A stretch of DNA of 63,739 nt, filler included, from Hausera hauseri (Eukaryota), in the NCBI GenBank assembly GCA_046269625.1. It is 10 parts of 10 records of this genome, joined end to end, with 100 filler letters (N's around TTAATTAATTAA, not from the genome) between each part and the next. Parts side by side here need not be neighbours in the genome. Positions count along the whole stretch, not along the records: positions 16,301 to 24,075 come from JBJURY010904423.1; 9 more parts are not named here. The stretch is one strand, 5' to 3'. The notes under the pieces are model-generated. The model saw only the letters and a program-made list of their open reading frames with translations, did not search any database and was not told the DNA's origin. This document shows, piece after piece, positions 1,486 through 45,285 of the stretch; position 1 is the stretch's first letter, and each line of letters opens with the position of its first letter. The position numbers and the translations under genes were made by a program.

Positions 1486-1499
1486 GGGGCAATCCGGCT

Positions 1500-2760: not shown

Positions 2761-3099
2761 TTGGCGATAACACTTTTAGTACTAATTTCTCCATTAGATA
2801 ATAAACTTTTTATTTCCGCATGAAACTTTTTTCTTTGATCCTCCTTTATTATTTACAGTCTTGCTTTCTTTCTCAGATGTACTTCACTTAAGTTATTGGT
2901 TTTCTCTCTTAATGCAACTTCCCTTATTTTTTGTTTTACCACCTCCCAACGGGACTCTGCATCTTGTTCAATGTTAATCGTGCCATCCTAGCCCTGTTGC
3001 TCTCCCTTTGGTGTATCAGTTTCGAAAGTCATCAATGTGAACGCATCATTTCTCCTCTCCTCATCTTTCGGTTTCGTTAGTTCTCTGGGTTGAACCGGC

Positions 3100-3620
3100 C
3101 ATTGGTGTTCTGTCTTTCTTATAAATTCTGGACCGTTCCACCACTCTATTTTTTCTCGTAGCTCCTATATATCTAGTCCTCTAGAAAGATAGTCCGCTGG
3201 GTTGTGTTCCAATTTTACATATTTCCATTGATTACCGGTCGTTTCTTCTTGTATAAAACCCACTCTGTTAGCAACGAACGTTTTGTAATACTTACTGCAG
3301 CCTTTGATCCAAGACAGTATATTCATGCTATCTGTCCAGTACTGTACGTCTTCCTTCTCATTGCACAGGATCTTCCTCACCTTTCTCCCCAGCTTGACTC
3401 CTACACAGGCTGCCATCAATTCCAGTCTTGGTTTGGCGACACACTTTACTGGCGTTACCTTACCTTTCAAGCATATTATCGCTACTTTAATTTCTCCTTC
3501 CACTATCGATCTTAAATAAGCGACTGCCCCATAATCCTACCTTGAAGCGTAGCAAAAAATGTGTATCACAGTGCCGTCGCCTTCTTCAAAGTATAGATAT
3601 CTTGGTACCTTTATTGTACT
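3100..3620 (-). pseudogene. pol: BEL/Pao RNase H
   Basis: YGAVAYLR, PRLELMAA, WTDS, FVANRVGFIQ, WKYV...NPADYLSRG. Confidence 0.9.
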
Positions 3621-3979
3621 CAAACTATCCATGCCTTTTGCCCATTTCTTAATTTTCTTACTTCATGATCTCTTCATCCCAGTCCACACCCACCATCCAC
3701 AGTTGTTGCAATAACATTTTACCCAACAATGTGTAACAACTGAGGAAACCCAGTGGATCGAACACTTTTGCTAACGTGCTTAATAGTGTTCTCTTTGTTA
3801 CCTCCGTTTCTTGTTTATTACGGTCTTCAAAGTCGAATATATCGTCTTCAATTTTCTATTTCATCCCCAACGTCTTGGTAACAGTATCAGTTTTTTCCGA
3901 TATATTAAATCCTTTGCTCGACTCATAACAGGTACTATGTTCATTAACTCACCAGAATTTTATACCCACTTGTGTGGTT

Positions 3980-4996
3980 TCATTCCAGCTTTCTTCCACT
4001 TAGTTCACCGTATAACGAAACATCTTCTTTCTCTGTACTCACTGAATCGATACAGTCATCCATGTACGTAGAATACTCTATCGTCTCTACAGCTCTGGGA
4101 AATTGTTCTTTGAATTTTTCGGCGTTGTGCCTTGATACTAATTGTGCCAGAAAAGTAGAGGAGTTCAACCCAAATACCAGTCCATTGAACTCGTGTGTTT
4201 TGAGTTTCCCATCCTTATACCACAAAAACCTCAGATATTTGTTGTCCTCTGGTTTTATTTTGATCTGTAGGAACATTTCTTGTATATAACATACTACCAC
4301 CCGTGGTCTTTTTCTCATCCTTAATATGATATCCACAATATTCAACTGCAACTTCGGGCCGGGATCCAGGAAATCGTTCAGACACGTCCCTCGATATTTC
4401 GAAGCAGCATCGAAAACTATCCGACATTTCGTAGTGTCCCTTTTGACCTTCATTATGGGGAAGTGTGGTAACAACCAGGCCGTCTCTTGTCCTTTCTGTT
4501 CCTCTATTTCTCGAATATATCCTTCTTTAGTATGCGTTTCTATCACATTTTCATAAGCTGCCTTTGCCGTTTTATTTTTATCCAGCTTTTCCGTTAATGT
4601 TTTCAACCGTTTTTTTGCTATCCATTCATTATTTTCCAATTTTCGTTGTTTTCTTTCGTTCCACGGCAATGGCACACAGTATCTATTTTCCTCGTAAGTC
4701 GTTTCATCTAGTATACTCTTCACTGTTTTATCGTCTCGTTTGGACCTCTCAGGCTCATTCACATCCATATTAAATTCTATCTCCCATAATCTGTTCAAGT
4801 CGTTTTGAATTTTTTCTGTCCTAGTCCAAAAGGTCCTCACAAAATTACTATTTATCACTTTCCTTTCCTTTTTTACTTGTCCTACACAGGTCCAACCTAG
4901 CGGTGTTAATCGTGCCACCGGCGCTCTCCTTTTACCATATACCTCTTTGATCGACTTGTGCAATTCCATAAGATTAGTCCCGATGATTCCATCCAC
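3980..4996 (-). pseudogene. pol: BEL/Pao reverse transcriptase
   Basis: YCVPLPW, LPHFP, RIVFDAAS, LNDFLDPGP, EMFLQI, LRFLW, FGLNSS, YMDD. Confidence 0.95.
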
Positions 4997-5044
4997 TTCC
5001 GACCTAGGTGATTTTCTGGGAAACTTAAAATCCTTTAGGTGTGG

Positions 5045-5497
5045 TCATTTCTGTTTTTCTGTAAACCAATCTACTGCCCTCATTTGCCACTTTGTGTATC
5101 TCATAGCTAGCGCTTCGAATTTAACTTTCATTGACCGTTCCATATTTAATAACACCATATTTACCCTATCGATGGACATCTTAGTCTGCTTCCCTCTGAC
5201 AACTGTTATCGTCAACTTTTCCGTCTTCTTACCGACACCCAATTCCTCACATAGTCTTGAATCGACGAAGCTCTCGGTACTAGCATCGTCCAACAACATT
5301 ATTGCTCTTTTCATCCTATCCCCATTCTTCAACCGCACTTCTACCGTTTTTAGATCTATCCTCTCTTCCTGTTCGCTCGCTTCTGGAAGGCCTTGGGTCA
5401 CATAAGCTCTAACACCCTTTTGTTTATTTTGTACCTCCTTCCCTTCTTTTTCTTTCGACATCCTTGACGTAGATTCTTCTGTTGTTGCACCCACCAT
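5045..5497 (-). pseudogene. pol: BEL/Pao aspartic protease region
   Basis: AIMLLDDASTESFV active-site motif, followed downstream by the DGIIG flap motif. Confidence 0.8.
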
Positions 5498-5581
5498 TTT
5501 TTCACTTGAAATTTTAGTTTTTCGTTCTGATTTTTCCTTATTTTTGCCCTCCTTATCTGACTTCTTATTACCAGTTTTTTC

Positions 5582-5727
5582 ATGTATAAATTTACAATTA
5601 TTCCCATACTTACATTCCCCTTTTCATAATACCCACACAACCTCCTTTGATCGTCTGTACTAGGTAGGTGTGAATATTTACAATTCTCGCCGAATTTGCA
5701 TCGACCGTTCTTATCAAAACTCCAGCA
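5582..5727 (-). other. Tandem CCCH zinc fingers at the Gag C-terminus
   Basis: CWSFDKNGRCKFGENCKYSH is C-x8-C-x5-C-x3-H. Across a 1-nt frameshift near 5615, CGYYEKG(E)CKYGNNCKFIH is C-x7-C-x5-C-x3-H, and the shifted frame joins ORF 5045..5497. Confidence 0.88.
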
Positions 5728-5782
5728 TCTTTGTGACCGATCCTCACGTGGGATGTTAGAACGATTAGATTGCATCTCTTCT

Positions 5783-7234
5783 TTAATCTTTTAATCTTGC
5801 TTTAAACTTTGTGTTTTCATATTCTCGTGATCCTTTTGTAAAATACGTTCTTTTACTTTCTACCAATGAATATCGACCACCTTGACCTGTATTGAACGTC
5901 TCTATCCCTCTCACTCTCTCTATAGTATTACTTATGACTATCGCTTCCTTTTCGATCCAATTCTTCAGTTCCAGAACTGTCCTGTCTGACTTTTTATCTA
6001 TCACATGCCTTTCCCTAAGAAGTGCTATCGATTCTGCAAGCTTTTCCACGAGGCTCTGGTACAACAGACCCCCAGTAAGTTCTTTTGCTCTTCCTAGACT
6101 CCTCAATCTCACGATTATTCCTTCCAGTAACGCTACAAATTCGTCTAATCCTTTTATATCATCCTCCTCTACTGCCTGAAATCTTATTACCTCGGTCATG
6201 AACGCTGCATAGCAGCATTGTTCGCCCCCATAATAGGAATCCAATTTCGCCAGAGATGCCTTGTACCCCTATTTTGATAAATCGAAATTTTCGACTAGCC
6301 TTTTCGGCTCTTTATACAAGAATTGGTTCTGCTGTAGTCGTTTGTATATTTCCGACATTGTAGTTTTGTGGATACAAGTGTCAAAGGTCTTCTTCCATTT
6401 GTCGTACTCTGTAATGACCCCTCCAAATTTCGGTAACTCTAATTTTTGTAACTTCGGCAATATTGTTTTTTCTCTTTTTTCCTTTTCGGACTTCCCATTG
6501 ACTATCATCATCTTGTTTTCTCTCGAACGTCTCTCATAGATGACCGCGTTGATTTTTTTATTTTGATCACCTAACTATTCCATGTCATTCTCCAGTAGCA
6601 TAAGGTTCTCTTTCTTCCTCAATTTTCTTGCTGCAGTAGTTAATACACACAGCTCCCCTTGAAGATCGGTATAAGCTTTTTTATATTTCTGGTGATAGAC
6701 TTTGTATTCCTGATCATCCAAGTTTTCATTTATCAACTTTCTCCGAATCGTTGATAAATCATTGATGAATTTACGCCGTTCTGACAGCCTATCCTCCAAC
6801 TCTTCTGCAGTTAACTCACTTCCACCCTTTAGCCACAACTGTAAATGAATAGTCACATCCTTTTGAATATTGTATTCACTAAGTTTTCTACCGTCCTTTA
6901 GTTGTATCCCATTATATACCAACCGTTGTTGGTCTGTGGGGATTCCTTCTCTTTCCTCGATAACCGACTTCAATATTTCTACTTTATCCCACAATTTTAT
7001 AGCCGTTACAATTATTTTTCCTGAAATTGTTTCGAGAAAGACCGTCGAATCCGATCCTTTTGCTCTAACTGCTTCTTCTTGTGCCAAACTCCCGAAGCCG
7101 GGTTATTCTCTTTCTTTCATCCTAACTGACTCTCGCTTTAATTGTGACTTGTCCTCATCGGATTTACTATCATCAGTGAATTCCATTATCTTCCTTGGTT
7201 TTACACTACTAATTCGCGGTTTTTGTCCGGCCAT
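5783..7234 (-). pseudogene. gag: BEL/Pao Gag with N-terminal ubiquitin domain; interrupted by premature stops
   Basis: ATG at 7234 (MAGQKPR...) is in frame with 6575..7087 across a TAA at 7103-7105. The capsid-type region reads LPKLQKLELPKFGG...W...F...IH, then LDSYYGG...LVEKL. Confidence 0.85.
6821..7048 (-). other. Ubiquitin domain (76 aa, ends LKGG) inside Gag
   Basis: [11 protein letters not shown]...[43 protein letters not shown] aligns without gaps to ubiquitin ([43 protein letters not shown]). Confidence 0.95.
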
Positions 7235-7671
7235 TTTGACTTGATTCTTGGCAACATTGAACCTGGGATATCTTATGATTCCCCACAATTTGTTTAACAT
7301 TTTAAGACAGTTTGTTTCGAACAAAAACCTTTGTTTCCTTTTCCAGTCAGTCCACGATTTTATCCATTGTTGTCTATCCTCTCCCGCCTATAGGTATAGA
7401 CAGTAGGATTCTTTTCTTTTAAATTATTATCGTCCTCGGCGCAAGATTCCGTAACTCCCCATGTTAGCGTCACCTTTGTGAAATAGTCACGATGTTTCAT
7501 TATTTTCACTCCACCATATCTCCTCATCGTGCATATTTTACATAAAGTTCCCGCATTTATTTTAACATTCAAATGGAAGGAATAAGTTCCGGAAACAAGG
7601 AGACGGACATGGATGCTTCGAAAGACCAATGCTTCACGTGGCCTGCGCCCGTGAATCACGGTGCGGAGCAC

Positions 7672-7690
7672 AAACCACGCTCTGCTACCA
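7672..7690 (-). promoter_or_regulatory. Primer binding site, initiator tRNA-Met type
   Basis: TGGTAGCAGAGCGTGGTTT, complementary to an invertebrate-type tRNAi-Met 3' end (...AAACCACGCTCTGCTACCA), lying between the 5' LTR and gag. Confidence 0.8.
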
Positions 7691-7695
7691 ACAAA

Positions 7696-9258
7696 TGGAT
7701 ACATTAAATAGAAAATATACGTTATATTCCTTTGGATGTTATTTTTCCCTTCACCCAAATAATACACCTCATTCATAACATTACGACGTATAATTTTCTT
7801 TACAAGTTTCTCTCTGGGCCTATTTCTTTTCAAGCCTTTTTGTTTTCATACTGATTTACCTCGTCCATCACGCTTGATCGTCCAAAAAATGTACCCCCAA
7901 CAAACTTGTTCCTTACTCCACCCAACTTGACCTCCCCGTTTTCAAGATCCGTTCTTCCCTTTTTCAATTCCTCTAGTTCGTTCTGACTAATGCATATAAC
8001 TCCTCCTATAACCCCAGCATTCAACCTGAGCATGATCACAAAAACCCCATCAATCACTAACATAAACACACATACGCTCATACTTCGCTTGCAACCTCCG
8101 CCGACATCCCCGAGACAAGATAAAGAGAAACAATGAAAACGGTTATAATAAACAATACCTCTGAACTTGTACACCATCTCCAGTCCGTTCTGACGACTAC
8201 TAATATCACGTAAATAACTACATGTCACCACTGAGAGATCACAGAACAGATTCATTCCCAACGAGGTTCGCGAGTCCCACCGACAGGTCCATAATGAACG
8301 TCTCAAGGCGGTAGAGTAATTTTGAAAATCACATCGTAAATATTTATCTCCAGCATATACCTTCGAAAATCAACTTTTGTTGTGACGGTAGTTTCGAAGA
8401 ACATTGTTTGTCTATTTTTTGACGTAGGCTCAATTGCTTGGTCGACGCATTTAAATTCCAAAGGTAGATCATATCATTATGTTTGAGGTCAAATTCATCT
8501 TTTATTTTCATTAATTCAACGACAGGTTTATCAACATCATCTAATTTATCAACGTTTTCCAAATGATCCTCTGAATTAGAACAAAGAAATTCCCAAATTA
8601 ACACTTTCTTTGAATTCATAGTAAACACAATCATTACCAACTTTCGGAATTTGTTTTCTGTATGATTTTTCGTCAATTTCTTTATAGTTTCATTAGATTT
8701 CTATCCTTTGAAATGAGCTTTACAATTAAGGACAATTAACAACTCTCCACAAGATTGAATATTCTGATCTATCATCTATCTTTATGTATTCCAAATTAAC
8801 AATATTTCAAAATTTTAAAATTTAAATTTATTAATTCTTAATAATTTATCAATTTGCAATATATTCCCTTTGCAATATATATTTCTACCTTTGTACTTAT
8901 TCACTATAGGCACGTCATATATAACCGCCCACACAGATCCTCCTCCCTCCGCCTCTATGGGTGTCCACGGGGTTACGTCACAATTGCATAATTCACACGT
9001 GTTTACATTTTCTGATCAAACACACCTCTTTTCTCAACCGGACCTCATACACACACAATTTCAACACAATAAATATAAAATATTATGTACAATATATATA
9101 ATACCAGCATACCCGTTCCCATTCCTATACACACATACCTATGGACAGCTACATCTATTTACACACATTCATCTTTACACATACTCTTTCGTTTACCCTA
9201 ATGTTGATTTCTGATTGGATCGTTGCCGAATTTCCAAACTAACAATCGGGTCCCAGCA
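7696..9258 (-). repeat. 5' LTR of the BEL/Pao element (~1.6 kb; inner boundary uncertain, ~7696 or 7630)
   Basis: Begins TGCTGGGACCCGAT at 9258, is homologous to 1..1471, and ends near the PBS candidates. Confidence 0.75.
7830..8775 (-). pseudogene. LTR-encoded ORF, 5' copy (one in-frame stop and one frameshift), function unknown
   Basis: ATG at 8775 lies 483 nt from the LTR start (486 nt in the 3' copy) and is in frame with 8344..8676. A frameshift then leads into 7830..8306, which is homologous to the ORF in the other LTR. Confidence 0.55.
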
Positions 9259-9960
9259 GTTCTTTTCCATTCTAATTACAGCCGTTCGTGTCAAATGTCG
9301 TTAACAAGAAACAGACTCAATTAGATAAATTGCTAATTATTTTTTATCCATGCAGTTATACGAGATGCGTTGTGAAATTAGATTGTACAAAATGCCTTTT
9401 TCAAAACATTATTTTTTACTCCATTTAACACACTCATGAAATTTCGAAAATGTTTTTGTCTAGTTTGCATTTCAATGTTAAGAAAATCATAAAACGCAAT
9501 TTTTTAACAATCAATTAAAAGACACCTATATTTACAATTAAAATGTTCAATAAGGACCTCCATATGATGGGAAATTGACAATTCTTTTACAATCCCTCTT
9601 ATTATGTATTTATAACATTAATGACTTTGACAATAATTGAATACCTGTGACCTTACGATAACTTTAAAATTACCACGATGACTCATTAGAGGGGTCGATG
9701 AAGTTAGCAGTCTGTTTCGTAACAGTTACCCTACAATTGAAGGGTCAATGATATAGGTCTCTCGAGAAAGTTAGCACCAAGCACCCGCATCGAGCTGTAT
9801 TTCTATGAGTTTAGATTTATATCTCCAACAGTTATTGTGGTGTCAACCGTATGTTGCGGTCCCTTGGCCCATTTTAGTCGGGAACAGCCGAATGCGACAG
9901 TTTAGTCCCGACGGTGTAGCTAGCCGAAGGTCGGCTGTCCTCTCTTGGAGGATCTTGTCG

Positions 9961-10988
9961 ATGTTTACAAATTTATCAGTTTGGAATCGTCAGCATTTAA
10001 ATGAATATCTTTTGAAAGCAAATCAACTTTTGAGAAATTCAAATTTACAAATTTCACCGAAATGTGATGAATTTAAGCGTGCCGATTTTATATTCAAGCA
10101 GTCGGAAGTAGATAGTTTTTATTCTTTACCTGGAATTCCTCTCTCAGACGAAACTCCAATTATTAATGATGATGAAGTGATTAATTATGATATTGAGCAG
10201 ATTAATACGGATGTCATTAGTAAAATTGATTTCGCCGATATTTCTAAAAAGCTCGATGACTATAACCAATTATTCAAACTGTACAAGAAAGGAAAATTAA
10301 AGTCACTTGAAAGTAAATTACCGAGATCCAATTTAGCAAGATTGATAAAAGAAAAAGCTCGACAGTTAAAGCTTTTCTCAGCTCACCAAAGGCAGCCTAT
10401 GTATCGTGCGTCATCAGGGCGTATTGCATCTAGAACTTTAAGTGCTTTTAGTTATGAAACAAGGGAAACGGTGAGTAAACTTAGTCGAAAAGAAATGGAA
10501 ATTATCAAAGGCAATGAAACGATAATTGACGACGACAATCAGAAAATAAAAATCACAATAACCGATGGATATAAAAAGTCAGTCAGCTGTTTTTGGAATA
10601 TTCCATTCCGAGTGCAGTTACCACTAAAGATTCGAACAAGTTGCCATATTTTCAGAGAGAACTTTTGGTAAGTAATCCAAAAGGGAATAATAAAATCCAT
10701 ACTTTAAATGTAAACTTCCAAGCATTAGGAGCCGAATTTAAAACAGACGCAATGTTTAAGAAAGAACAGTTTGATGATATTCCATTTACATTTGCAACAA
10801 CTCCTGTTTCCGGTTTCGTTTCTCGTCAAAGATGTATTAGTGCAAATCAGAAATTGAAATTCTCCAGGCCGATTTCAACGATGTCAGTCGTTTCTAGTCA
10901 AAGATTAATTGCTCAGGAAACTGTGCATGATGATTTTGTAAACAAGAGTATAGATCGTTTTATGAGCTCAATTAGTGCACATGCTTAA
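9961..10988 (+). CDS. Unknown intronless protein (~340 aa) split by a probable frameshift near 10590
   Basis: Overlapping ORFs 9805..10671 and 10593..10988 with protein-like composition in AT-rich surroundings. No motif recognised. Confidence 0.4.
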
Positions 10989-15880: not shown

Positions 15881-16619
15881 GTATGACTGCAAAGCAAGAA
15901 ATCCACTTGAAAATAATCATAAAAATTAGTAACATATTTTATTTAAACAGATAAGATTTAAATTCGATTTAATTGATTATAATCAATGAAAATAATCAAT
16001 ATTAGATATTTCAAAGTATGAATCATACAGAAATATAAATTCTCTATAAATAGCGAACAGAGCAGTTAAAAATTAAAAATTAAAAAATAAATTTATGATA
16101 TAAAATTTTAAAATATGTAAATCAAGGTTGTAATTCAACGAGTCGGTGACGGAGTATTATCGACAACATACTGATCGTCAAAAAATTCAAGGAAACCTAA
16201 NNNNNNNNNNNNNNNNNNNNNNNNNNNNNNNNNNNNNNNNNNNNTTAATTAATTAANNNNNNNNNNNNNNNNNNNNNNNNNNNNNNNNNNNNNNNNNNNN
16301 ATGTGTTTAATTGCTTGTTAGGGTACTAATTACTGGAAATTATTTAATCGTTCATTCCCACCTAGACCAGACGTTATTCTTGACCACGGTCTTCTGAAAT
16401 GTCCAAGAATATCAAGCCTTTGTGAAATAATTACAGCAGCAAGTGAAAAAATTATTTCGAGATATATAACGTGTGATGATGTTCCCTTCTTCATAATACT
16501 AGTCGAACTAATTGCGAAGCATTTCCCAAATAGTCCCATAATTTTCAAAACCAGTATTACTTGTTGATCGTCGTGATGTAAGGGTCCATTACTGGACTGA
16601 TTCTCCTTCAAGTCAGACT

Positions 16620-17645
16620 TCGTGTCAGTCTGCATCTATCTAAACACACAATGCTATTTGCTTTATTTACCTGCCTTTCTTGAAGTACACGCATTATTTG
16701 TTTTAATTCTTGTTCCATTTTAATTCGTTCACGTTCTTTCATATCAATTCGTCGTATGACATCCTCTATTCTTGCTTCGGTTTTGGTCTAAAATTGAAAA
16801 TATGAAACAAAACCGGTTTTAAAGAAATCGCGAATAATCAGACTTGCTTCTTTTCAAAATCAAGTAATTTCTGATGGATCATTTTCATTTCTTCCTAAAA
16901 TTGAAATACTTATTTATCAACATTTGAATTGGAATTACTCGGGACTGTTGTAAATCTTCATTAATCCTCACTGATTTCCTTTGATTTTCATTACTTTCAC
17001 CACGTAGTTTCATTTCATTGACGTACTGTGTTTCCTACAAACATTGACAGGTGATGAATACATCCACACTCGAATTAAATAATAAGATACCTGGATTTTA
17101 TTTTTACTAACTTTGAATATTAAACGAATTTTACTGTAAATCGTGGTTTTTATAACAAATAGTCAGACAGACGTGTAAAATATAATGCTGATTTGAGAAA
17201 AGTAAAAAGTTCTAAATTCCTAAATGTACTGGGGGGAGGGTATTTGAATAAGTGCTAAATGCTGTTACAATTAAAGTCTCAAAATGCGTTATTTTGCGTT
17301 TCTCGGTAAAACTTTTTTTCACGTTATTAATCAGCATTATATTTCCCATGTCTCGCTGACAGTTTGTTATGAAAACTCAGGTTTACAGTAAAATTCGTTT
17401 CTTTGTGAGAAAAATGGAAATTTTTGTTGTTCTAAATAATTATTTTAAATAGGTTAGGTCATTGCACATTGACTTTTACAAAATACTTTTTAACAATGCC
17501 TTTCCATCCGATTAAAGAACTTGCTTTTATTATCGGCCAGGCGTTCGGAATTGTTTTCATTGGGGTAAGTTTTATTCGGTTTCGGATATGTAAAATTTGT
17601 CCAATGTGTTTCGTCCCATTCCGAAAATGAAATTTTCTTCATAAC
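16620..17645 (-). CDS. 3' exons of a spliced gene with a coiled-coil C-terminus (identity unknown)
   Basis: GT-AG introns of about 30-60 nt join ETQYVNEMKLRG...QQSR, EEMKMIHQKLLDFEKKQ and TKTEARIEDVIRRIDMKERERIKMEQELKQIMRVLQERQ in frame. The upstream extent is less certain. Confidence 0.6.
17122..17400. mobile_element. MITE-like element with ~70-bp imperfect terminal inverted repeats
   Basis: Left end AAACGAATTTTACTGTAAA...TATAATGCTGATT is the reverse complement of right end AATCAGCATTATA...TTTACAGTAAAATTCGTTT. Confidence 0.8.
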
Positions 17646-18459
17646 CATGTAATTTAAAAATCTTTAATAATTAATTCAGATCATGAGTTACGCTTTTGAA
17701 ATTTGAATGTATTCTATTCGATTTAAAACCGAATATGGTAGGAAACCTACCGAAATATGTATTTGCAAATAGAGTTCAACTTTATATATATCCTCCTGAG
17801 ACCCATGTCCACAAATGTGGATCCTTGGTTTAAATTGCTTTAAAATTATTTGCATTGCATTTAGAAAACTTAAGCTTACTGCACTCGAATGAGGACAAAT
17901 TATTCTTTAAATCATGTCGTCCGTTCACGTTCTAGGTTCTTTATAATTTTTGTAAACAAAGTAGAAAGTTTTGTGAAAATTTTTTATTTATTTGAAAACA
18001 CTGGCTTTGATCGCACAGCAGAAAAGTAAGTTTCTCTGTTAAACTCATTTTTATGAATTGCTATTGAGTGTAGATTTAATTTTAAGGGCAAATGTAACGA
18101 ATGACATTAACTTAATTGTTATTACTGCAATTATTAGATATCATTAAGTAATATAATTTATTAACTATTAACTATTAGTAGTAGTCTATGTATTGTTTTT
18201 AAGATTTCTCTTTGCTGAAAATATCATATAAAACTCAAATCTGAGGGTTTAAATGTGTTTAATTTAATTGTATGTGATGCTGTATTGCTTTATTGAAGGA
18301 AATAAAAAATTGTGTTTAATTAGCTACAACTTCTCTGCAAGTTGTGCTTCAAAATTTTACTTTTAAGAAGAATAACGCTGAATACTAATATATATAATTT
18401 TATCAAAACTTTAAAATCCAAAAAAAACAAGTGACAAAAAAAATCAACAAAAAATAACT

Positions 18460-18839
18460 TGATAACACTTACGAGCAAAGTAACAAACGATTCCTGTAGA
18501 TCTTTCCAATATCAATATCAGACAAATACTTCAATAAATTTCTATTTAGAAATTTCTCCCGAAGTACAACAAATAATCAATAAGTTTCCTTCTAGTAACA
18601 GAAATAATAAAAATAGAAATTCAGCCACGATTTTTCGTCAGTTAGTAAAATAACTGCTGTTATAACCAATTCAATTAAACTAATTTCATTTCAGTATTTA
18701 TAGTTATTTTTTACAAGATAAATTTAGCGCCGGCGCGAGTAGAAATTGTCAATTAATTTTGATTCAGCCGCGCGCGCTGATTTTAAAACTTAATGCTAGA
18801 CTAGTGCATCTAGTCTAGACAATAGTCATTTTATCAACA
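18460..18839 (-). repeat. Candidate 3' LTR
   Basis: Starts TGTTGATAA right after the purine tract AAGGGTCGGGGAA (18840-18852). TATAAATA near 18695; ends ...GTTATCA at about 18460. No second LTR is available to confirm it. Confidence 0.6.
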
Positions 18840-18999
18840 TTCCCCGACCCTTAAGGGATTAATACAAAAACGAAAAAAATGAAAATAATATTTACATAAC
18901 TAATAAATGAGTCTAATAACTAAAGATGAAAAATAATAAAAATGAAGAATACAATAGATACAAGATAAGAAAATAGCATGCAAGAGTAATCACAATTTT

Positions 19000-19797
19000 T
19001 CAACAGTCTAAGTTTACAATGTTCCTGATATCATTTTCTATTCGAAATGTCAAAGTCTGGTCTGCATCTGGTCTCTTTTTTGACGGTATTCGTTCAATTG
19101 GAATTAGGACTGGTTTTTGATACTTCATTAGGAGGATATATATTAATTTTCCACTTTTGTGATCATCCTTCAATTTTGATATGACCGATTTGTTTTTCAA
19201 TTGTACAGGTAGCTTGACGTTGAATTCTGCGCCTAATCTTATGGGTAATCGGTATAGCTTTTCATAATCATCGAAGAGGTAAAACATCTTTATATCACTT
19301 GAACGTTCAAATATAAAACCAATCACTTCGTTATTGTAGGTGTCCCATGATTGTAAACTGATTTTGGGTATAACTTGATCTATATAGAGAGGGGGTTCAA
19401 CGGAATCTATCACTACGGGAAAACTAAAGTTTCTCGTGTATATAAGTATTCCGTAAGGGAACGTGAATGTTTCAACCGTAGTCAATCCTTTTATAATCCT
19501 TTCGGTGAATTTTATAAAATCGGTTGTCTCTGTTTGAATTGCACAAGATACTTTTTGAATATCTTTATTATTCCAATCATGATTTGATGCATTTTCATCT
19601 TCTTCACTCGCAAGCTGATCTTCCATCTGTAAATTCTTATCTTCATCGGCAATGATATCTGAGATTTCTGATATAGAGGGAGTTTTCAATTCTTCCATTA
19701 TTTCATCTACAATAGCCTCTGTGTTCTGATTAGTTCCTCCGGTTGAATGATAGATCCATGCAAAATCCGACAGGTATTTTTCTCTATTGTAAAACAA
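19000..19797 (-). CDS. Unknown accessory ORF (265 aa), possibly a frameshifted continuation of 19707..20855
   Basis: Long open frame inside the element, with an acidic linker followed by a globular-looking region. Confidence 0.6.
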   Translation of the reverse strand: MFYNREKYLSDFAWIYHSTGGTNQNTEAIVDEIMEELKTPSISEISDIIADEDKNLQMEDQLASEEDENASNHDWNNKDIQKVSCAIQTETTDFIKFTERIIKGLTTVETFTFPYGILIYTRNFSFPVVIDSVEPPLYIDQVIPKISLQSWDTYNNEVIGFIFERSSDIKMFYLFDDYEKLYRLPIRLGAEFNVKLPVQLKNKSVISKLKDDHKSGKLIYILLMKYQKPVLIPIERIPSKKRPDADQTLTFRIENDIRNIVNLDC

Positions 19798-20855
19798 CTC
19801 CCCGGATCAACTACATTATTAAATGTTTCCTGCGGTGTCCATGATACCTGGAAAGGGTTTGTTACCAACTGAAAAACGTCCATAGTGAGTTTCAATTTGC
19901 CGTGGTCGTCTTGCGCATAACCTTGACCATTTTTAAATCCAGGTAATTTCAAAAGAGTACTGATATTTACTAACGTTAGTTGTTGGAACGTGCGTCCAGT
20001 AATTTCTTCGTGTTTCAGTAAGTCTACCACTCCAGCAAGATAATTGAAAGGAATATCGAAAACCTCTATCATCCTGTGGGTTTCTAATCCGATTACCACC
20101 GTTCCAAGCAACCAGTTAATCATTTCTTTTGTGACATCAAATATGTCTTGTATATGATAAGCGATATATTCTGGTAATATGCCATGCCGTATTGAGTTGA
20201 CGTTATGTAACTTCTTCCTGTTAGCTACAATTGCTTTGTATAATATAGCACCTCTTTTGTTGGCAATAATGACGTGAATGGGTAGAGGGCTATTATCTTG
20301 CATATAACCTGTGGATACAGTTAATATTCTGATGGTATTGCTCTGACAAGTATTTATAAAATTGACCTTGGTTTGTATTATTGTCTCCGGCGGGTTATGT
20401 GCTAAGACCATAGGTCTTGGCAAATACAAATGTTTTTCCGGCAGAAGACATTCGATTATCATAATTATTGGAAGGTACAATGGTCTGACTTGGATCAAAT
20501 CAATACTCATAGGGGTATTGATAAAATAAGTTTCTTCTTCGCAAATCGAGTTTGTGATTGCATCAGAATATCGACTTTCATTTCTTGTTTTTAAACAAAT
20601 CATTCCTCTGGCCACGTGTATTACTATCCCATCAATAGCATCTGTTTTAGCCATATATTGTTTTAATTCAAATTGCTGAGATTCATGAATTGTATATATA
20701 CCAAAATTCCTATTCATGGTTATTTCGTGCTTTAATTGGTTGGGGATACGAACCACATTTAAAGCTATGAAACACTCAGTTTTCACCATTTGTCTTCTGA
20801 TGTTGTTATAAAAGGTTTTTGACAAGGTTTTATTAAAACTACTTCTTGAAACCAT
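19707..20855 (-). CDS. Accessory ORF with a C-terminal REX4/ISG20-like (DEDDh fold) domain lacking catalytic acids
   Basis: HVIIANKRGAILYKAIV...HGI...FDVTKEMINWLLGTVVIGL...LTLVNIS..L follows the REX4 pattern VSIVN..G.VLYD..V...SGI...F..V..EV..LL.G.ILVGH. Domain at about 19863-20333. Confidence 0.6.
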   Translation of the reverse strand: MVSRSSFNKTLSKTFYNNIRRQMVKTECFIALNVVRIPNQLKHEITMNRNFGIYTIHESQQFELKQYMAKTDAIDGIVIHVARGMICLKTRNESRYSDAITNSICEEETYFINTPMSIDLIQVRPLYLPIIMIIECLLPEKHLYLPRPMVLAHNPPETIIQTKVNFINTCQSNTIRILTVSTGYMQDNSPLPIHVIIANKRGAILYKAIVANRKKLHNVNSIRHGILPEYIAYHIQDIFDVTKEMINWLLGTVVIGLETHRMIEVFDIPFNYLAGVVDLLKHEEITGRTFQQLTLVNISTLLKLPGFKNGQGYAQDDHGKLKLTMDVFQLVTNPFQVSWTPQETFNNVVDPGSCFTIEKNTCRILHGSIIQPEELIRTQRLL

Positions 20856-22173
20856 AATTCTGAACTAACGTTTGAAAATCTAATTGATCTGCGTGGTATT
20901 GAGGATGTAGTTTTGAATACAATAAGTTTGATTCTATTTGTGAATCGTTTCTCGTCATTTTTGGGTTTTGGCGTTTCATTTTGAATTTCTGTTGATTGAA
21001 TTGATAGAGGACTGAAAATAAATTAAATTCATTTAAATACTCACCTTTGTAGCTTTGTATACAACATACAACCAATGAGCATGTTAGAAGTTCAACTATT
21101 TGTGGGGACGCATGTAGTGTGTGCGATGATTGCTCGTGTAGATGACTAATTTGCAATCGCCATCTTGAAATTAGTGGGCAGTGACACGTGTTAGTGTCAG
21201 TATGACTGTGTCTGACTATTTTTGGAATAATTAAAGTGCCTATAGCCAACGTAAGCAACAAAGCTATACTTAATACAATGATTAACAAAGCACATATAGT
21301 AATACTTAGCTCAACATTATCAATTTTTGGTCTCATAGTCCGAGATTCGTTTCTACTATCTTTTTTATTATAACTAAATTTAACTACATTATTTATTTTC
21401 TGTAATGTTTTAACATAAATTTCTGAATAGTAGGTACAGTTCTTTACTACTACTAAATATTTAGTATCTGAGCTTAATCCTATGCAATAGGCATATTTTT
21501 GTTTTCTTTCAAAAATAATTCTCTGTTTATGGTGTTGGTTTATACAAGTTATACTAACCCATGCATTCCGAGTATTCGTTTGATGATTCCAAGCGAACTC
21601 TATTCTATCTTGTTTAGGATAAGTTAGTACAAACAAGTTATCCGTAATTTCTATGTCATTATACTTAGCCATCTTTTTATACTCCTTATAGGGTATGTTG
21701 CATATATTTTGTTCGGTCATGAAAGTAGTATCATACACAGAATCATTAATTTTAAATGGTATTAGACATTTAATGCTAGATTTAACTGTCAAATGTAAAT
21801 CCCATCTCTTTTCTTTATTGATCTTAAAAATTAGTGCTAGTAGGGAGAATGGTTGATTTATAACCAATAAAAGACAGGTTAAAATATTGTCTTTATATAG
21901 ATCCGCGAAAGCTAATTTGTCTTTATAAGAAATCACTATTTGTACTATGTTGCTAGTAGGTCTCTTTTTAAATCTTATACAACCTTTTTCAAAGTTTGGT
22001 CCTAACACTTGCATTTCTTTGTTAAATATCTCGTCACCAGATGTATGATTTTGATTCTGTTTTATTAGTTGCACCATTGATTCATAGGGGATGTTAAATT
22101 GACCATAACTCATATGAGTGCATGATAACCAAATAGTAAATACACAAATCATAGTTAGCAGATTGGTGGACAA
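20839..22173 (-). CDS. Type I membrane protein-like extension of Pol: hydrophobic signal-like segment, FN3-like domain, TM helix
   Basis: LLTMICVFTIWLSC, then IEFAW...IGLSSDTKYLVVV...YVKT (FN3 Trp and Tyr-corner pattern, ~21403-21642), then LSITICALLIIVLSIALLLTLAIGTLII (~21223-21309). Same frame as integrase. Confidence 0.7.
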   Translation of the reverse strand: MSTNLLTMICVFTIWLSCTHMSYGQFNIPYESMVQLIKQNQNHTSGDEIFNKEMQVLGPNFEKGCIRFKKRPTSNIVQIVISYKDKLAFADLYKDNILTCLLLVINQPFSLLALIFKINKEKRWDLHLTVKSSIKCLIPFKINDSVYDTTFMTEQNICNIPYKEYKKMAKYNDIEITDNLFVLTYPKQDRIEFAWNHQTNTRNAWVSITCINQHHKQRIIFERKQKYAYCIGLSSDTKYLVVVKNCTYYSEIYVKTLQKINNVVKFSYNKKDSRNESRTMRPKIDNVELSITICALLIIVLSIALLLTLAIGTLIIPKIVRHSHTDTNTCHCPLISRWRLQISHLHEQSSHTLHASPQIVELLTCSLVVCCIQSYKGEYLNEFNLFSVLYQFNQQKFKMKRQNPKMTRNDSQIESNLLYSKLHPQYHADQLDFQTLVQNYGFKK

Positions 22174-22284
22174 TAACTTTGGTGATGTAAACCCGAATTT
22201 TCCAGTATACGATTTTGGAGCCTTTGTTACATTTTATATGGAAACATTCTCTATTTTTCCAGGAGACTTTTCTATGAACAGGGT

Positions 22285-24075
22285 TTATGGTCTTACTTCC
22301 ACAACTTTGTATGGTCCTTTGCCAGTGCGGGTTAATTTTAATGATCTTCCTTTAGCTGTGAGTGGATAATGTATCACGACAAAATCTCCAATTTTATATG
22401 GATTTGACTGAGCCTTTTTATTATAGTACTTGGTGTAGGATTTTTTATAATTATCTCTAACCGCTCGCGCTTGTTCTCCATATTCACTTAACTGTTTTAG
22501 TAATAGTGTATAATTTTTTTCTTGCAGGTTACCCGTAAATGGCAGAACTGTTGGTAGCAGCTTGACATCCAGTAGCAACAACGGAAGTCTTCCAAACATT
22601 AATTCGTATGGTGTTTTATTTGTACTTCTCGTTGGTGTGGTATTCATAGCGAAAGCTACAGTTGGTAATTTATCTGGCCCATTTTTCTGATCTGCAGAGA
22701 CTTGTACGGATAAAATTCCTTGTACAGTTCTATTCGAACGTTCAACTTTACCATTACATTGTGGATGATAAGCTGTAGTTAAAACATGTCTAGTATGTAG
22801 CACCTTTGTGACTTCATTAAACAACTGACTTGTAAAATACGGGCTTTATCTGTTAATATTAATCTAGGTAATCCTAAAACGCATATTAATTTGTTGAACA
22901 ACTCCATGGCTATTGTTTCCGTAGTCATAGCTTTTAATGGGATTAATATAATGTAGCTTGTGTAATAGTCAATAAAACTCAATATATATTTGTAACCTGA
23001 TTCCGAGGTCGGATAAAATCCTGAAATATCCATTTCACATATTTCCATAGGTGCTTTTGGCTCTGGAAGTGTTCCAAGCAGTGGTCTTATACATCTTCCC
23101 CTATCCCTTCGGGTTGCGCAAATCTTACAAGATTTGACCCAATTGATTATGTCTTCTGTCTGATTTGGCCAAAATTATTTGAGTTTAATACGCTTTATGG
23201 TCTTGCCTAACGATGGGTGACCAGCTAGTTGAGAATCATGTTCTTGAAGTAAGACTGATTTTATCAAATAATTAGGTATTACAATTAAGGCTTTATCGTT
23301 GCATATGTATTTCAGTATATTTTTATCTATAATCAATTTGCTTTTGTGGTCTGTCAGCCATTCAGTTAAACGTTTATCAATATTAGGCATTTCTGACGTA
23401 CGTACGTACTGCTTCACTACATAAAGTAAAGGATCGTCATCTTGGACAGTTGCTAATTTGTTTGTATTTAGATTCGAGAATTCTGTCATCATCATAGTAA
23501 ATTCGTGTTCATCTATCTAAGTAAGTGCTGCAGAACTGATCTCAGGATATAGGGTTCGCGATATAGCATCTGCATCGCTGTGAAGCCTTCCTGGTACGTA
23601 TTTAAATTTCGGATTGTAGTTTAATAATTCTAATTTCCACCGTTGGATTCTATTATAAATACGCTTGTTTTTACAATCAAGTTTTTCTAATGCTTGGTGG
23701 TCTGTATAAACTATAACTGGGTAACCATATATATAAAATTCGTAATTTCTTAAGCCTTCTAGAATTGCTGACAGTTCCAATTCAGTAGCTGAATAATTTT
23801 TCTCTTCTTTAGTTAAGGCTCTTCCACCATATGCTACCACATTCAATTCTTTCATTAGGATATTGCTGCGCCAAAATATAGCTTAAACCATTTAAACTCG
23901 CATTCGTCTTTAAAATAAATGGTAATTCAAAATCTGGGTATTGTAGAATCGATGCGGAAACCATTTTCTTTTTCATGTCAAATGCGTTTTGGTGCTTTTC
24001 TTTCGAAATGTATTTCTTATCGTTTCGTAGTAATTCATATAATACACTATTTATTTGGGAGAAGTTTTGTATAAA
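22285..24075 (-). pseudogene. pol: Gypsy pol: RT connection, RNase H, integrase with GPY motif
   Basis: EKNYSATELE, VYTDHQAL, DADAISR, EHDSQLAGH...C..C, LILTD, TTAYHPQCNGKVERSN, TPYELMFGR, GKGPY. Confidence 0.95.
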
Positions 24076-39094: not shown

Positions 39095-40660
39095 TTACTA
39101 ATTCCGATGAATTTGGAGAGACAGCATTGTAAGCAAGCTAGAGAAACAGGAAGAATAAAATTGGATGGTATGGAAGTGAAAATGCAGCAAGGGAAAATAA
39201 TCAGAGTGTATAAAGTGGCAGCAGGAAAACTAGATATGCATACTCGACATTGTTGCCGTGCGGAATACGATACCGGAAAGGGACTAGAGTCAAACATCGT
39301 TGTAGTGGATTTTTACAAAACCGAAATGCGTATACAGAAAGTGATGTTTCATAGCGTTACTAAACTTTACACCGAGAACCACAAGTGCCACATTCAGGAT
39401 GGCACATGCCCGTTTCAAAGTTCCGTAGTAATTTGGGAACCCCCAGCCAAGACCGATTGCAACTTTATCAAAATTAAAGAACTTAAGTTCAACGAGACGA
39501 CAGGAAAACGATATATAACTAGCACGGAAACTAACTCTAAAACACGAGAAGATGTGGCCAAACAGTCCACACCTACTATACTAATTTCTGATACTCATGG
39601 ATTAAAATTTGTAAAGAAAGCTATGCTCAACAGATGCGACATCGTAATGTATGCCACCAACTATAAAGCATTTTTCGTAACCGAGACAGAAATAAACGCC
39701 AGAACGTTGAAACTCGAGACTCAGGACATTCGGATCGAAGACTATTTGAAGAACAGAGACGACTATTTCTACTGTAAAGGACAAGTTGGAATAGCCAAAT
39801 TATACCACAAAATGATAACAAATGACTGTAAATTCACTTGGAAATCATGATAACTAAGCTGGTCCTGATATACGCCAATCCCGAGTTGGCATCACCAGTA
39901 ATTCCGATTAAAGAGGGTGTTTTTGGACGAGTAACCGGAGAGGTCTTATTGATCTATGAAAGTGAAAAGAAAGACGTACCGATTAATGTGGAGGAGAAGA
40001 GGTGTATACAAGAACTTCCAGTGATGTATCAGGACGTACCGAGATTAGTCACACTAATTACCAGAGTGTTGTTGGCAAACGCCACTCAACCGACAATTTT
40101 GAGAGACTGCAAAACTAGCTTAGGAGAGCCGATGTTCAGATGTAGCAAGACCGACTGGTAAGTCTACCGAACGGCGGTATTATCTCACCACCTACCAAGC
40201 TGACAGGAAAAAACCTGATAAAAGGAATAACCGATGATAAATTTCAAGATACAGCCGCAAAGGGTATTTACCGACCCAAATAAGTAGAGGCGTTTATACA
40301 ATTTCTCGCTTTTCCGCGCCAACGTACATATGAATTAAACAGAGCGATGCACACAATATTGGAGGATTCGCGGTACCAGGCGAAATGGGAGTATTTACTT
40401 GGTGTTGGCTATTACAAGAAGGTAACTACAGAAATATTATACAAAATTTGGGGAAGATTCCTGATATTTGGGCAAGCCGCGTCAGGATTTTTAGCGATAT
40501 ACTTCTTAATTCAACTAGTAAAAGCTATAATTCAAGCAATCATAAATGGATACGAGATATTCACCTTGACAGGATTTTCGTGTAAAATTTTAACGGTTAT
40601 TATTACACCCTTCGGTAAATTCTTAAAGGCTTATGAAGAAAGTAAATGGAAACAGATGTG
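39095..40660 (+). pseudogene. env: Envelope-like class III fusion glycoprotein (chuvirus G / gB-like family), 5'-truncated, frameshifted
   Basis: Ordered motifs: CHIQDGTC....VIW....DC; CDIVMYATNY; EGVFGRVTGEV; RCIQELPV; ITRVL...DC....F....W; FQD.AAKGIY....L.FP; W..F..FGQAASG plus TM plus INGY. Confidence 0.8.
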
Positions 40661-41304
40661 GAGCGGCATGTTGGTTACCATAATCAAAAACGTAGAAAAC
40701 ACATATTCGATTATAGGCAAAAATTCATAGTCAGTAAGACACAAAGAAATAATTCGGATAATAACGAGCCTAAGGGAGGAGACGGCATCTCCAGGCTAAA
40801 AAGGCATAGAAATTACTCCGTTATGAAACTACCGTTACCAATACTGCTGCCAACGGCATCTATATATGAGGATTGCGAGAAAAAATCTGAGTTCGTGTCA
40901 GACAGACGTTTATCGGAAGCCTTTCAATTTAGAGGACCCTTACGAAGGAACAAAACGCTATGGGATATTGCGTATGATCCACGAAACGGAAAGGACGTCC
41001 GCCCCACCTCGTCGGTCAACAGTCGACGACCACGGCATAATTTACTCACCTAGAATACCTAAGCCAAACAAAATGCAATCGATATTTACTCGAAGCTGTG
41101 AGGCACAAAATTCCCGAAACCAAGATGTTCAGCCACCGGTTAGAAACCAAAGAGTAGAAAACACAAATGGTCCAAATAACGAACTATATCCAATTGGAGA
41201 GCTAAGACAATTAATCGATCAGCCAGTTGGAACCACTAAAGTTACCATCAACAGCTACAAAGTGTCTACGATACGACAACCCAAGATAGCACCAAGTATT
41301 ACGG

Positions 41305-41660
41305 TAGAGTAATCGAAGGCAGGCCCTTCGCAAAGATTCAATTGGAAGATTTGGAGGTTTATTCACTAATAGACACAGGATACGAAATATCACTGATAAA
41401 ATATGATTCAATACCACAATTCTTACGGAAACAATTATATCCACCTCCTACGACAGACCCAGGAAGCATTGGAGCTTTCGGACAATCCTAGAAGAGTAAA
41501 TTCCGATGGAAACCAGAAATTTACATAATGGGATAATCTTTTCGTCATGAATTCTCAGTAATGGAGCAATTAACGGATGATGTAGTGCTAGGATGCGATC
41601 TATTGAAACAACCACCTAATATAGCAATCGATTTCAATGCAGGCAAGTTGATAGAACTTG
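41305..41660 (+). pseudogene. pol: Retropepsin-type aspartic protease
   Basis: RPFAKIQLEDLEVYSLIDTGYEISLI (DTG at 41372-41380) and DVVLGCDLL. Frameshifted, so absent from the ORF track. Confidence 0.88.
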
Positions 41661-41719: not shown

Positions 41720-44700
41720 TAGACGAGAACATACCGCCCAGAACTGAAATATTAATATACGCTCACATACGTCAGGATGACGATAAACCAGTATATTTCG
41801 AACCAAAAGAATCGCTCAATCCAAACCTCGTGCTCAACAACGTTTTGACAAGAGTATCAACGGGCCGCGTGCCAATCAGAATAGCGAATAACGCAACAAC
41901 TCCGATCAAACTGTATGCCAATACCACTTTGGGACACATGTATAGAGTATCATCCATTACCATCGAAGAGAAACCGTATAAGGGTGCCGAATTTCCACCC
42001 CACGTTGAAACTAAATTCTCACCGGAATTATACTGCCGATTCTACGAATTACTTTGTCGTTATAGTTCGATTATCGCGAAAGATGAAGAAGATATTGGCC
42101 GAGCCAAAACCTTAAGGCTTACCATCCCGCTTAAGAAGAAGTCTGGCTCCAACGACCAAATAGACTTAAAGGATCAAAAGATGCCGAAATGGTACCCTCC
42201 TCCACACTCGCTAAGGCCAGAGATAACTAAGGAAGTTGAACGAATGTTAAAGGCTGACATAATGAGACCAAGCTATAGATTTTGGTATTTACCTATCCTC
42301 ATAGTTAAGAAGAAAGGCACCGCGAAGCACCGATTCTGTATCGATTATCGAGTACTAAACACACTTATGATGAAGGACTCCTTCCCATTGCCATCGGTAA
42401 AGGAAGCTTTGGACAGACTTTCTGGAGCTAAATGGCTCACCACTCTTGACTTGCAATCCGGATATTGGCAAGTGGAGATAGAGGAGGAAGATCGTTACAA
42501 AACGGCATTTAAGACACACGATGGCATATACGAATTTAATGTCATGCCTTTTGGAATCACTACCGGATTAGCCATTTTTACGCGCATGATAAATAAGATG
42601 GTAATAAGATTGGAACACGCATTTGCCTACTTGGACGATGTTATTATTGCGTCGAAAACGAAAGAAGATCACCTAAAGGACATTGAATGTACACTCATGA
42701 GAATGGAGCAGACTGGATTGAAACTGAATCCCAAGAAATGCAAATGGGCTCAAAATGCGGTATTGTACCTTGAACATATAGTTGCAGAAGGAGGATCGAA
42801 GCCGAATAAATCATTATTGAGTAAGATATCGGATTGTATGGAACCTCAAAATCAAAAGGAATTAAGACACTGGTTGGGGCTATGTGGGTATTATGCAACC
42901 TACATATCCGATAACGCAAAGATAAACGCACCTTTACATCACATACTCAAAAAGAGATTAAATAGAAATGGACCGACATAGAACAAAAAGCTTTTGACAA
43001 AATGAAAAAGATTCTGAGTAGTGAACCTGTTCTACGGTAACCCGACTTTAACCTACCGTTCATAATTAAAACAGACTCCAGTAAGGAAGGTATCGGATAT
43101 GAACTGGCCCAGAAACGAGAAGACGAGGAGCAAGAGCACTTGATTGCATATAGAGGACGTTCTCTAAAAAAAGCTTAGAAGAACTATTCCGTAACAGAGT
43201 TGGAAACATTGGCAGTAAAAGAAGCACTGAGACATTTTAACATGTACGTCTATGGACAAAATATTATAATCGTTACTGATCATAAAGCAGTTATGACTTT
43301 GAAAGATAGAGCAAATAATCCAACATGCAGATTAAACAGATGGATAGAAGAAATTTCACGTTATAATATTGAATTCCAATACAAGTCCGGAAATAAACAT
43401 ATCGACTCCGATGCATTATCGAGACTTAAAACTAAAACAAGCGCAGTTCCTGTAATGAGGAAAGCACACCTCGAAGACTTAGTAGAAGGACAACGGACTC
43501 TCGTGCTGGATAAATCATTAAGGATTTCTTTCAAACAAAAGAAGGACGGAGTTATACAACAAATTATCGAGTTCGTTGACACCAACGTAACACCCAAGGG
43601 TCATCAGTTACGGAAACAACTACGACAATATGGTCATAAATACTGCGTCGTTGGAGATTTAAACCACAAAAACGTGTTAAACTACGAACGAAAAGGACAA
43701 AAATTGGTAGTCATACCAAAAGGATTGCGTACGGAAGTACTCATAACCGAACATGATTCATACTTAGCCGGACACATGTCGTGGAAAAAGACATTAAAAA
43801 GGATATTAAATAAGTACTATTGGCCGAGTATTTATATCGACGTAAGAAATTGGATGAACGCTTGCGAAGTATGCGCGACCAAACAAAGAAAAGTAAAAAA
43901 AGCTACATTGCCAAACTTAAACCTATCCACGTGCCAGATAGACCAATGTAAGCAATGTCTATGGATATTGTATGACCACTGCCTACAACCCACAAGAATA
44001 ACAAATACATTTTGACCTGCGTAGACCGATTGACTCACTTCGTCGAACTTGTAGCGTTATTAGACCAAAAGGCCGAGACCTTGGCAGAAGCCGTAGTTCG
44101 AAAAATCATTTGCAAATACGGGCCACCCGAACAAATTTTGACAGACCGAAGAAGAAACTTTGCGAGCGAATTATTTAACAAAATTAACAAGATTTTTAAA
44201 ATTGAACGACTAACTACCACAGCTTATCATCCCCAATGTAACGGAATGGTCGAACGAATGAACGCGACAGTTATACGAATCTTATCAACAGTAGTCGCAA
44301 AAGACCAGAAAGATTGGGATGAGTTCTTAGAAGGTATACAGTTTGCCATTAATACGACTTCACATCCTGCGACAGGATTCACTCCGTTTTTCATGATGTA
44401 TGGCAGAGAAGCTGTCCTGCCTACCGATTTAGGATTAATTCCCTACGCAACGAAAATGGAAGATCTAGAGCAGAATTTTGTTAAAGTATTACAAACGAGA
44501 TTGCATAAGTGATGGAAAATAGCCAAGGAATTATCTAAAGAATACCAGGAACAATTCAAGAAGCAATACGATAAGAAGGCTAAACCGCACGATCTGGAAC
44601 CCGGAAACTGGGTTTACGTGCACTACCTAGTGGCAAAGAAAACACATCTCTTAAACTCACACGGACAGGTAGAGGACCTTACGAAGTTACCAAAGTAACA

Positions 44701-44760
44701 CCAACCACAGTTTATATAAATAAAAACGGCAAGGAAGAGATCATATCAATTCAGAGAATA
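41720..44760 (+). pseudogene. pol: Gypsy pol: post-protease (dUTPase-like) spacer, RT, RNase H, integrase
   Basis: RFCIDYR.LN, LDLQSGYWQV, KTAF, VMPFG, AYLDDV, IIKTDSS, NYSVTELE, TDH, EHDSYLAGH...C..C, ILTD, TTAYHPQCNGMVERMN, GRGPY. Confidence 0.96.
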
Positions 44761-45285
44761 GTTAAAACGGAAATAAGACTAAATAAACGCTATAATTTGC
44801 GTTCGAATAAAGTCAGTAAGGAAAGGAAAACATCGTCAATCGTAACCAGACCTATATCATATGTACAAATAATCCTTGTCCTATCGCTAATCGTTTCTTA
44901 TGTACCCAAGGTAAAATTAATAACTAGAGCCGAAAAACTACGATACGCAATGAAAGGCAGGGATATCCAGAAAATGCAATCACTTAGAGTATACGATATG
45001 GATTGTAGAAAACCATGTGCATGGTTTGAAGCAAGCGAACCTATTCAGATCCACGTAAAATTTCAAATAATATTTGTAACCAGATCCACGATGAAAACAT
45101 GTGATTTTTCATATGGATATCACAAAAGAAGCTGTGATTTGGATTTTGGACAAGCCTACGGGTACATATTTCAAATGTTTTATTTTAATCAGTTTGGAGC
45201 TCAAGCTTATATAATTATAGAACTCGTAAGAAGAATGCCCCAACGAAAGGACGCAAACCAAACCAAGACAGACGAAATAATTTAA
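44761..45285 (+). CDS. In-frame extension of integrase with a hydrophobic segment and a Cys-containing domain
   Basis: The frame from 44641 (SLKLTRTGRGPY...) is stop-free into ORF 44797..45285, which contains YVQIILVLSLIVSYV. Confidence 0.75.
   Translation, partial: VKTEIRLNKRYNLRSNKVSKERKTSSIVTRPISYVQIILVLSLIVSYVPKVKLITRAEKLRYAMKGRDIQKMQSLRVYDMDCRKPCAWFEASEPIQIHVKFQIIFVTRSTMKTCDFSYGYHKRSCDLDFGQAYGYIFQMFYFNQFGAQAYIIIELVRRMPQRKDANQTKTDEII

Follow-up and report, generated by a model that had tools for sequence, protein, structure and literature searches.

The stretch of DNA analyzed here (the window; 63,739 nucleotides [nt] of the Hausera hauseri assembly GCA_046269625.1) consists of 11 short contigs with N-spacers between them. 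The minus strand of its contig 3 (JBJURY010904423.1, positions 16301 to 24075, 32% GC) carries the 5.3-kb 3' part of a Ty3/gypsy element. In this element (C3), two stop codons, most likely the result of decay, interrupt the integrase frame on its way into a predicted type I membrane protein that likely contains an FN3 domain, and we assign a probability of about 0.58 to the reading that this protein is a second surface protein released by signal peptidase. The order of reverse transcriptase (RT), RNase H (RH), and integrase (IN), together with the H2C2 finger, the rve core, and the GPY/F module, fits Ty3/gypsy membership. The contig starts inside the RT, so gag, protease (PR), and any upstream envelope gene (env) lie off the contig. 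The element is a dead copy, and this retrovirus-like element is probably of flatworm origin, as judged from the gene order of a sister element in contig 7. Being decayed, truncated, and without homologs, the copy is a weak witness. An artifact of contig joining was ruled out, as the nearest spacers are at 16300 and 24076. The remains of pol and the junction are as follows, in coordinates of the window.

23517..24075, minus strand: decayed Ty3/gypsy pol, comprising the end of the RT connection and the RNase H (Pfam RT_RNaseH, E 4.8e-20), with a frame change near 23866 and a TAG at 23519-23517
22779..23516, minus strand: integrase zinc finger and start of the core, broken (Pfam Integrase_H2C2 and rve), with a TAA at 23177-23175 and a frame change near 22840
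22288..22845, minus strand: end of the integrase core and GPY/F module, 29 to 34% identical to Ty3/gypsy integrases
22285..22287, minus strand: TAA, 10 codons after the G of GPY, a lesion inside the integrase C-terminal module
22234..22236, minus strand: TAA, 27 codons after the G of GPY, inside the same module

From GPY (22317-22309), the integrase frame continues through TAA 22287-22285 and TAA 22236-22234 and is then open to TAG 20841-20839. The initial annotation had described this continuity into a long open reading frame (ORF), and the translated minus strand bears it out. Its measurements stand in part: the long ORF is real, but the 444 aa assigned to it count from a TTG (about 22173), whereas the first ATG (22152) gives 437 aa, and the 37 codons given for the linker are right if counted from the first TAA, but from the Y of GPY there are 45 to the TTG and 52 to the ATG.

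To judge the two stops, we compared the region after GPY with other integrases. Integrase baits recovered only distant Gypsy matches (six proteins at 28 to 35% identity and 59 loci) and no match among viral contigs. In this set of 65, GPY/F could be located in 38 sequences, 2 of which were cut by contig ends, leaving 36 that were informative. All 36 are open for at least 30 codons past GPY (the shortest for 33), and in P0003, an intact relative, the integrase C-terminal domain PF22938 spans 35 residues from GPY. Both TAA codons thus fall inside a conserved module that is open in 36 of 36 other integrases, a comparison of sequences that makes them most likely products of decay, as initially proposed. 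That they mark the natural end of pol was rejected, because every informative integrase reads through the interval. Four further lesions, two stops and two frame changes, are present in the C3 pol.

In C3, only 19 codons separate the end of the integrase module from a hydrophobic segment in the same frame. Such a segment lies at +52 from GPY in C3 and at +65 in a second element of the window, in contig 7 (39095-45323; C7). The chance of finding the right frame and an open linker is 0.07 for C3 and 0.035 for C7. An in-frame segment with a hydropathy value (KD12) of at least 2.2 after GPY occurs in just 1 of the 36 other integrases, that of P0003.

The frame beyond the second TAA is laid out as follows.

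20839..22233, minus strand: 464-codon open frame found by ORF scan, in frame with the integrase, an orphan with no homolog
22102..22176, minus strand: signal-like hydrophobic segment after a Lys, with a small-x-small end (KD12 2.46; cleavage site by eye), the first ATG (22152) lying inside it
21661..22101, minus strand: predicted extracellular domain of 147 aa, fold without assignment (no Pfam or FN3-profile match), with an extra hydrophobic stretch (KD19 2.17)
21400..21660, minus strand: likely FN3 domain (ESM features, profile), with a B-strand Trp and a GL-x-x-x-T-x-Y tyrosine corner in register
21307..21399, minus strand: short basic stalk of 31 aa, not mucin-like in sequence
21226..21306, minus strand: transmembrane (TM) helix followed by basic residues (KD19 3.14), the sole confident part of the AlphaFold model
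20842..21225, minus strand: predicted cytoplasmic tail of 128 aa with Cys clusters and a short hydrophobic stretch, by eye with no PDZ-type end

At the local base composition, 464 open codons would arise by chance with a probability of about 1e-16, and a chance ORF was rejected. No homolog was found by word search (near and longer lengths) or phmmer among 1.84 billion representative proteins, and there was no match among PDB sequences, viral contigs, or phage genomes, nor any similarity in the distant Gypsy elements found with the integrase baits. Signal and TM calls rely on hydropathy and on visual application of the (-3,-1) rule; the hydropathy fits a type I layout with a cleavable signal and a TM helix, though there are two extra hydrophobic stretches.

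The domain before the TM helix is likely FN3, as its features and sequence pattern suggest. By ESM features, the region scores 0.91, with fn3 proteins as 10 of 10 neighbors, and fn3 ranks first both with and without the TM helix. A homemade FN3 profile (10 of the 12 members tested are PF00041) gives 6.5 bits, a score equaled in 4 of 2,000 shuffles. The Trp and the tyrosine-corner motif align at FN3 spacing over 60 profile positions (24 to 83) with one gap, and the reversed domain scores -1.4 bits. The FN3-like domain and TM helix of the initial annotation are supported by ESM, profile, and hydropathy, while the FN3 call stays below formal thresholds.

The second element, C7, bears on both the junction and the role of the membrane protein. 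It is a decayed Ty3/gypsy element (39095-45323, plus strand) in which a gB-type env precedes PR-RT-RH-IN, that is, in GAG-ENV-POL order; between PR and RT is a beta-rich stretch that by eye looks dUTPase-like. Two of its features matter here.

39832..40730, plus strand: pieces of a gB-type (Monjiviricetes-like) env lying upstream of pol (PF24664, E 2.2e-15 and 2e-4)
44584..45285, plus strand: integrase C terminus whose frame stays open through a hydrophobic segment (from 44869) and for some 125 codons more

In a tree of 39 integrase sequences, which included those covering at least 120 to 140 residues and left out shorter matches, the C3 and C7 integrases are sisters (support 97/92), 1.6 changes per site apart. 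The C7 junction is free of stops, as first reported: past GPY, 203 codons can be read (44674 to the stop at 45283), and in-frame fusion to a signal-like segment is common to both sisters. Decay has also reached C7 itself, which has a frame change some 10 to 25 codons ahead of GPY, and the final stop of C7 is 40 nt short of the contig end, so that no FN3 domain or TM helix is reached. Homology between the two elements after the signal seemed plausible by eye and was rejected after a shuffle test, in which 669 of 3,000 shuffles scored as high. Because the sequences after the signal are not detectably homologous and the C7 contig ends early, C7 supports the junction only.

Since its sister has a gB-type env upstream of pol, a stand-in for env is not the best view of the C3 membrane protein. 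The best reading is that the element belongs to a GAG-ENV-POL (Burro-like) clade of Ty3/gypsy and that the FN3-type protein is no env substitute. It is very improbable that the membrane protein is the element's only envelope protein, either an FN3-based substitute for a fusogen or an immune decoy. Its position is the env site of GAG-POL-ENV elements, as in P0003, and with the upstream part of C3 off the contig, a gB gene is inferred from C7 only, both of which speak for that possibility. However, its 265-aa ectodomain has no match to PF24664 or any fusogen family (Pfam, E 10), whereas the C7 env pieces do match PF24664. FN3 domains are not known as fusogens.

If the membrane protein is instead a second surface protein fused to Pol, the ribosome would make a single polyprotein, and the internal signal, following cytosolic Pol and integrase, would send the chain behind it into the lumen of the endoplasmic reticulum. 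Host signal peptidase would cut behind the signal, freeing the ectodomain part, and the TM helix would halt transfer; the element's own protease would separate integrase from the signal stub. If a gB env also lies upstream here, as C7 suggests, Pol would loop through the cytosol between two anchors in the membrane, and fusogen, enzymes, and FN3 protein would be made 1:1. Among possible roles, we tentatively rate highest, though at somewhat under even odds, that the FN3 protein attaches particles to cells or targets them to membranes while their gB only fuses. Immune mimicry, also proposed in the initial annotation, finds no support. More doubtful than attachment is the wider proposal of a flatworm element clade with a two-protein envelope from one polyprotein, in which the gB-type fusogen comes ahead of Pol and a captured FN3 protein, evolving fast, follows integrase as the attachment factor that gB lacks.

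Several results weigh against a Pol-fused FN3 surface protein. Besides the shuffle test above, these include the distribution of lesions, of which there are 6 in 1,842 nt of pol and 0 in the 1,392-nt ORF (P = 0.034, or P = 0.030 if both downstream frame changes are counted as lesions). With all lesions in pol and none in the membrane ORF, the latter may have outlived pol as a separate unit, and a start at ATG 22152 would give it a short but complete signal. The ORF could then be made alone, from that ATG or from a spliced subgenomic RNA, and be selected after the death of pol in a nonautonomous subfamily or through host co-option, the in-frame link being ancestral or incidental; the extra ORF3s of rotifer long terminal repeat (LTR) elements are described as typically such separate, spliced units (PMC5408684, in the part consulted). 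We consider this unlikely. The lesion test is post hoc, compensating frame changes are invisible without a homolog, and a short-read repeat contig may be a mosaic. Moreover, the first Met of the C7 frame comes only at +92, after the start of the hydrophobic segment, so that read-through or splicing is needed in C7, and neither junction has an acceptor with a strong pyrimidine tract nearby (the best has 8 to 9 pyrimidines of 14).

The remaining counterevidence concerns the fold and the topology. The domain scores below the Pfam gathering threshold for fn3 (PF00041), and no Pfam match (E 10, with filters) came from the fn3 profile search that the initial annotation had proposed; the whole 464-aa ORF has no Pfam or NCBIfam match at E 10. 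The proposed AlphaFold modeling did not confirm the fold either: both single-sequence models have low confidence (pLDDT 35 to 39), and Foldseek and VIA-align searches with them returned nothing at E <= 0.001 and no FN3 row. There are also four hydrophobic stretches rather than two, the extra ones being residues 321 to 339 (KD19 2.17) and 583 to 594 (KD12 2.38) of the translation read through stops as X, and the one in the ectodomain could change the topology; glycosylation sequons are not enriched (4 versus 2.7). These results would suit a fusion that is real but whose domain is not FN3, or whose protein is multipass, as with a generic beta-sandwich cassette that serves to anchor or cleave the polyprotein at membranes and does nothing at the cell surface. 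Models of such low quality, however, neither show nor exclude the fold, and the ESM ranking and the register of Trp and tyrosine corner described above point to FN3, so that we regard such a cassette as improbable.

Downstream of the membrane ORF, contig 3 carries two accessory ORFs and the probable end of the element.

19707..20864, minus strand: accessory ORF of 385 codons (ATG 20855) overlapping the last 17 nt of the membrane ORF, its second half weakly DEDDh-exonuclease-like
19000..19806, minus strand: ORF of 268 codons with an acidic start, which may continue the 385-codon ORF across a frame change
18840..18855, minus strand: polypurine-tract-like sequence
18093..18839, minus strand: candidate 3' LTR, with TG at 18839 and four candidates for the CA end, among them 18093

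Against a profile of 20 bacterial PF00929 domains, the central 50 residues of the 385-codon ORF give a weak match (6.2 bits, 1 of 2,000 shuffles). The first catalytic motif (the Exo I acidic pair) was not seen by eye and there is no Pfam match; from its sequence, the ORF looks catalytically degenerate. The 268-codon ORF has no family match in Pfam or NCBIfam. Over 19000-24075 (minus strand), there are 6 lesions in 1,842 nt of pol versus 0 to 2 in 3.2 kb of accessory ORFs. No second LTR is present within contig 3, the 5' end of the element being off the contig.

Other contigs of the window hold further mobile elements and exons. Contig 1 (1400-9262, minus strand) contains a decayed BEL/Pao element in which a ubiquitin domain (PF00240, E 2.7e-18, 6575-7102) precedes the DUF1759 gag region and CCCH zinc fingers. 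Direct repeats of 76 nt at 1400 and 9187 are possible remnants of its LTRs, and beside the element (9775-10988, plus strand) are two overlapping ORFs of 298 and 137 codons with no clear family match. In contig 5 (29318-34292, plus strand), a Retrotrans_gag ORF has long ORFs of no family upstream and a long low-complexity stretch rich in R, D, N, and S downstream, and a giant element may have its 5' part here. Contig 8 (46623-50184, plus strand) adds a third Gypsy element, likewise decayed and more ordinary (gag-PR-RT-RH-IN start). Contig 9 (51881-52873, plus strand) has an Ig-TM-tail exon of higher GC content (0.46 to 0.49) in which Pfam shows Ig only; we take it to resemble the C terminus of a vertebrate semaphorin, which suggests DNA of a second organism in the assembly. 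Contig 11 holds thrombospondin type 1 repeat exons and a mariner-type transposase fragment (60559-61549, plus strand; 62559-63050, minus strand).

Membrane proteins fused to Pol, the GAG-ENV-POL order, and captured domains have each been described before, and the published sources compared below are cited for the parts of them that were consulted. An FN3 protein encoded by an LTR element was not found in the literature searched (subscription journals, Repbase, and Grohme 2018 were outside its scope), and a pol-env fusion in nematode BEL elements is not stated in the part of PMC3118150 covered. Expanded fn3 families are reported in a tapeworm (PMC8166898). Animal FN3-TM proteins (the FNDC5, FNDC10, CRLF2, and IL13RA1 clusters, ESM Atlas) share the layout of signal, FN3-type domain, and single TM helix and are the nearest feature neighbors of the C3 protein (0.85 to 0.91), but they show no sequence similarity to the C3 ORF at E <= 0.001, and a donor gene cannot be named.

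P0003, a 2,624-aa gag-pol-env single ORF, resembles C3 in that its integrase leads, without a change of frame, into a signal-like segment and then an ectodomain and TM helices. Its ectodomain differs, having by eye the basic cleavage site, hydrophobic peptide, and coiled coil of an F-type fusogen (with no env Pfam match) and no similarity to the C3 membrane ORF. The full order in P0003 is gag-PR-RT-RH-IN, signal-like segment, F-type-looking ectodomain, and TM, with a second signal-ectodomain-TM cassette at the end. Bdelloid rotifer LTR elements likewise have small TM proteins and DEDD-type nucleases downstream of pol, the kinds of extra ORF3 including TM proteins, DEDDy exonucleases, and GDSL esterases (PMC5408684). 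Those are separate ORFs, the DEDDy enzymes have intact catalytic residues, and no FN3 domain is named in the part consulted, whereas C3 has its membrane protein fused in frame to integrase, and its nuclease-like ORF seems degenerate.

The planarian giant gypsy element Burro/GYPSM1 (PMC6431247) is a parallel in architecture, with an env in frame inside one polyprotein, between gag and pol, as well as captured host-like domains and accessory ORFs. Its marks are a giant single ORF with gag, ubiquitin-like (UBL), BCL2, BIR, env, and pol regions, in an element of over 20 kb. It also has a dUTPase-like part between PR and RT, which in C7 is seen by eye only. The comparison with C3 was made by description: the Burro domains given in the part consulted are AIR1, Smc, MATH, BIR, ankyrin, BCL2, and ubiquitin-like, and neither FN3 nor a membrane protein after integrase is named there.

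Errantiviruses of flatworms, nematodes, and bryozoans have the GAG-ENV-POL order, their env being of the HSV (herpes simplex virus)/gB type (Chary and Hayashi, PMC13524379), and they share with our elements the Ty3/gypsy pol and, in the sister C7, the gB-type env upstream of PR-RT-RH-IN. The main text of that paper (its figures and most supplements fell outside the comparison) mentions no Pol-fused second membrane protein, fibronectin, polyprotein, or attachment. It does state that there is no explanation yet for how gB errantiviruses enter cells, since the gB of herpesviruses depends on partner glycoproteins, HSV entry requiring gD, gH, and gL too. If our reading is true, an animal adhesion fold has been captured by a retroelement, and signal peptidase, beyond the element's protease, processes a Ty3/gypsy Pol. 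A two-protein envelope, if real, would make this a retroelement with a herpesvirus-like split of binding and fusion and with Pol between two membrane anchors. A Pol-fused FN3-type surface protein would be a concrete candidate for the partner of gB in errantivirus entry.

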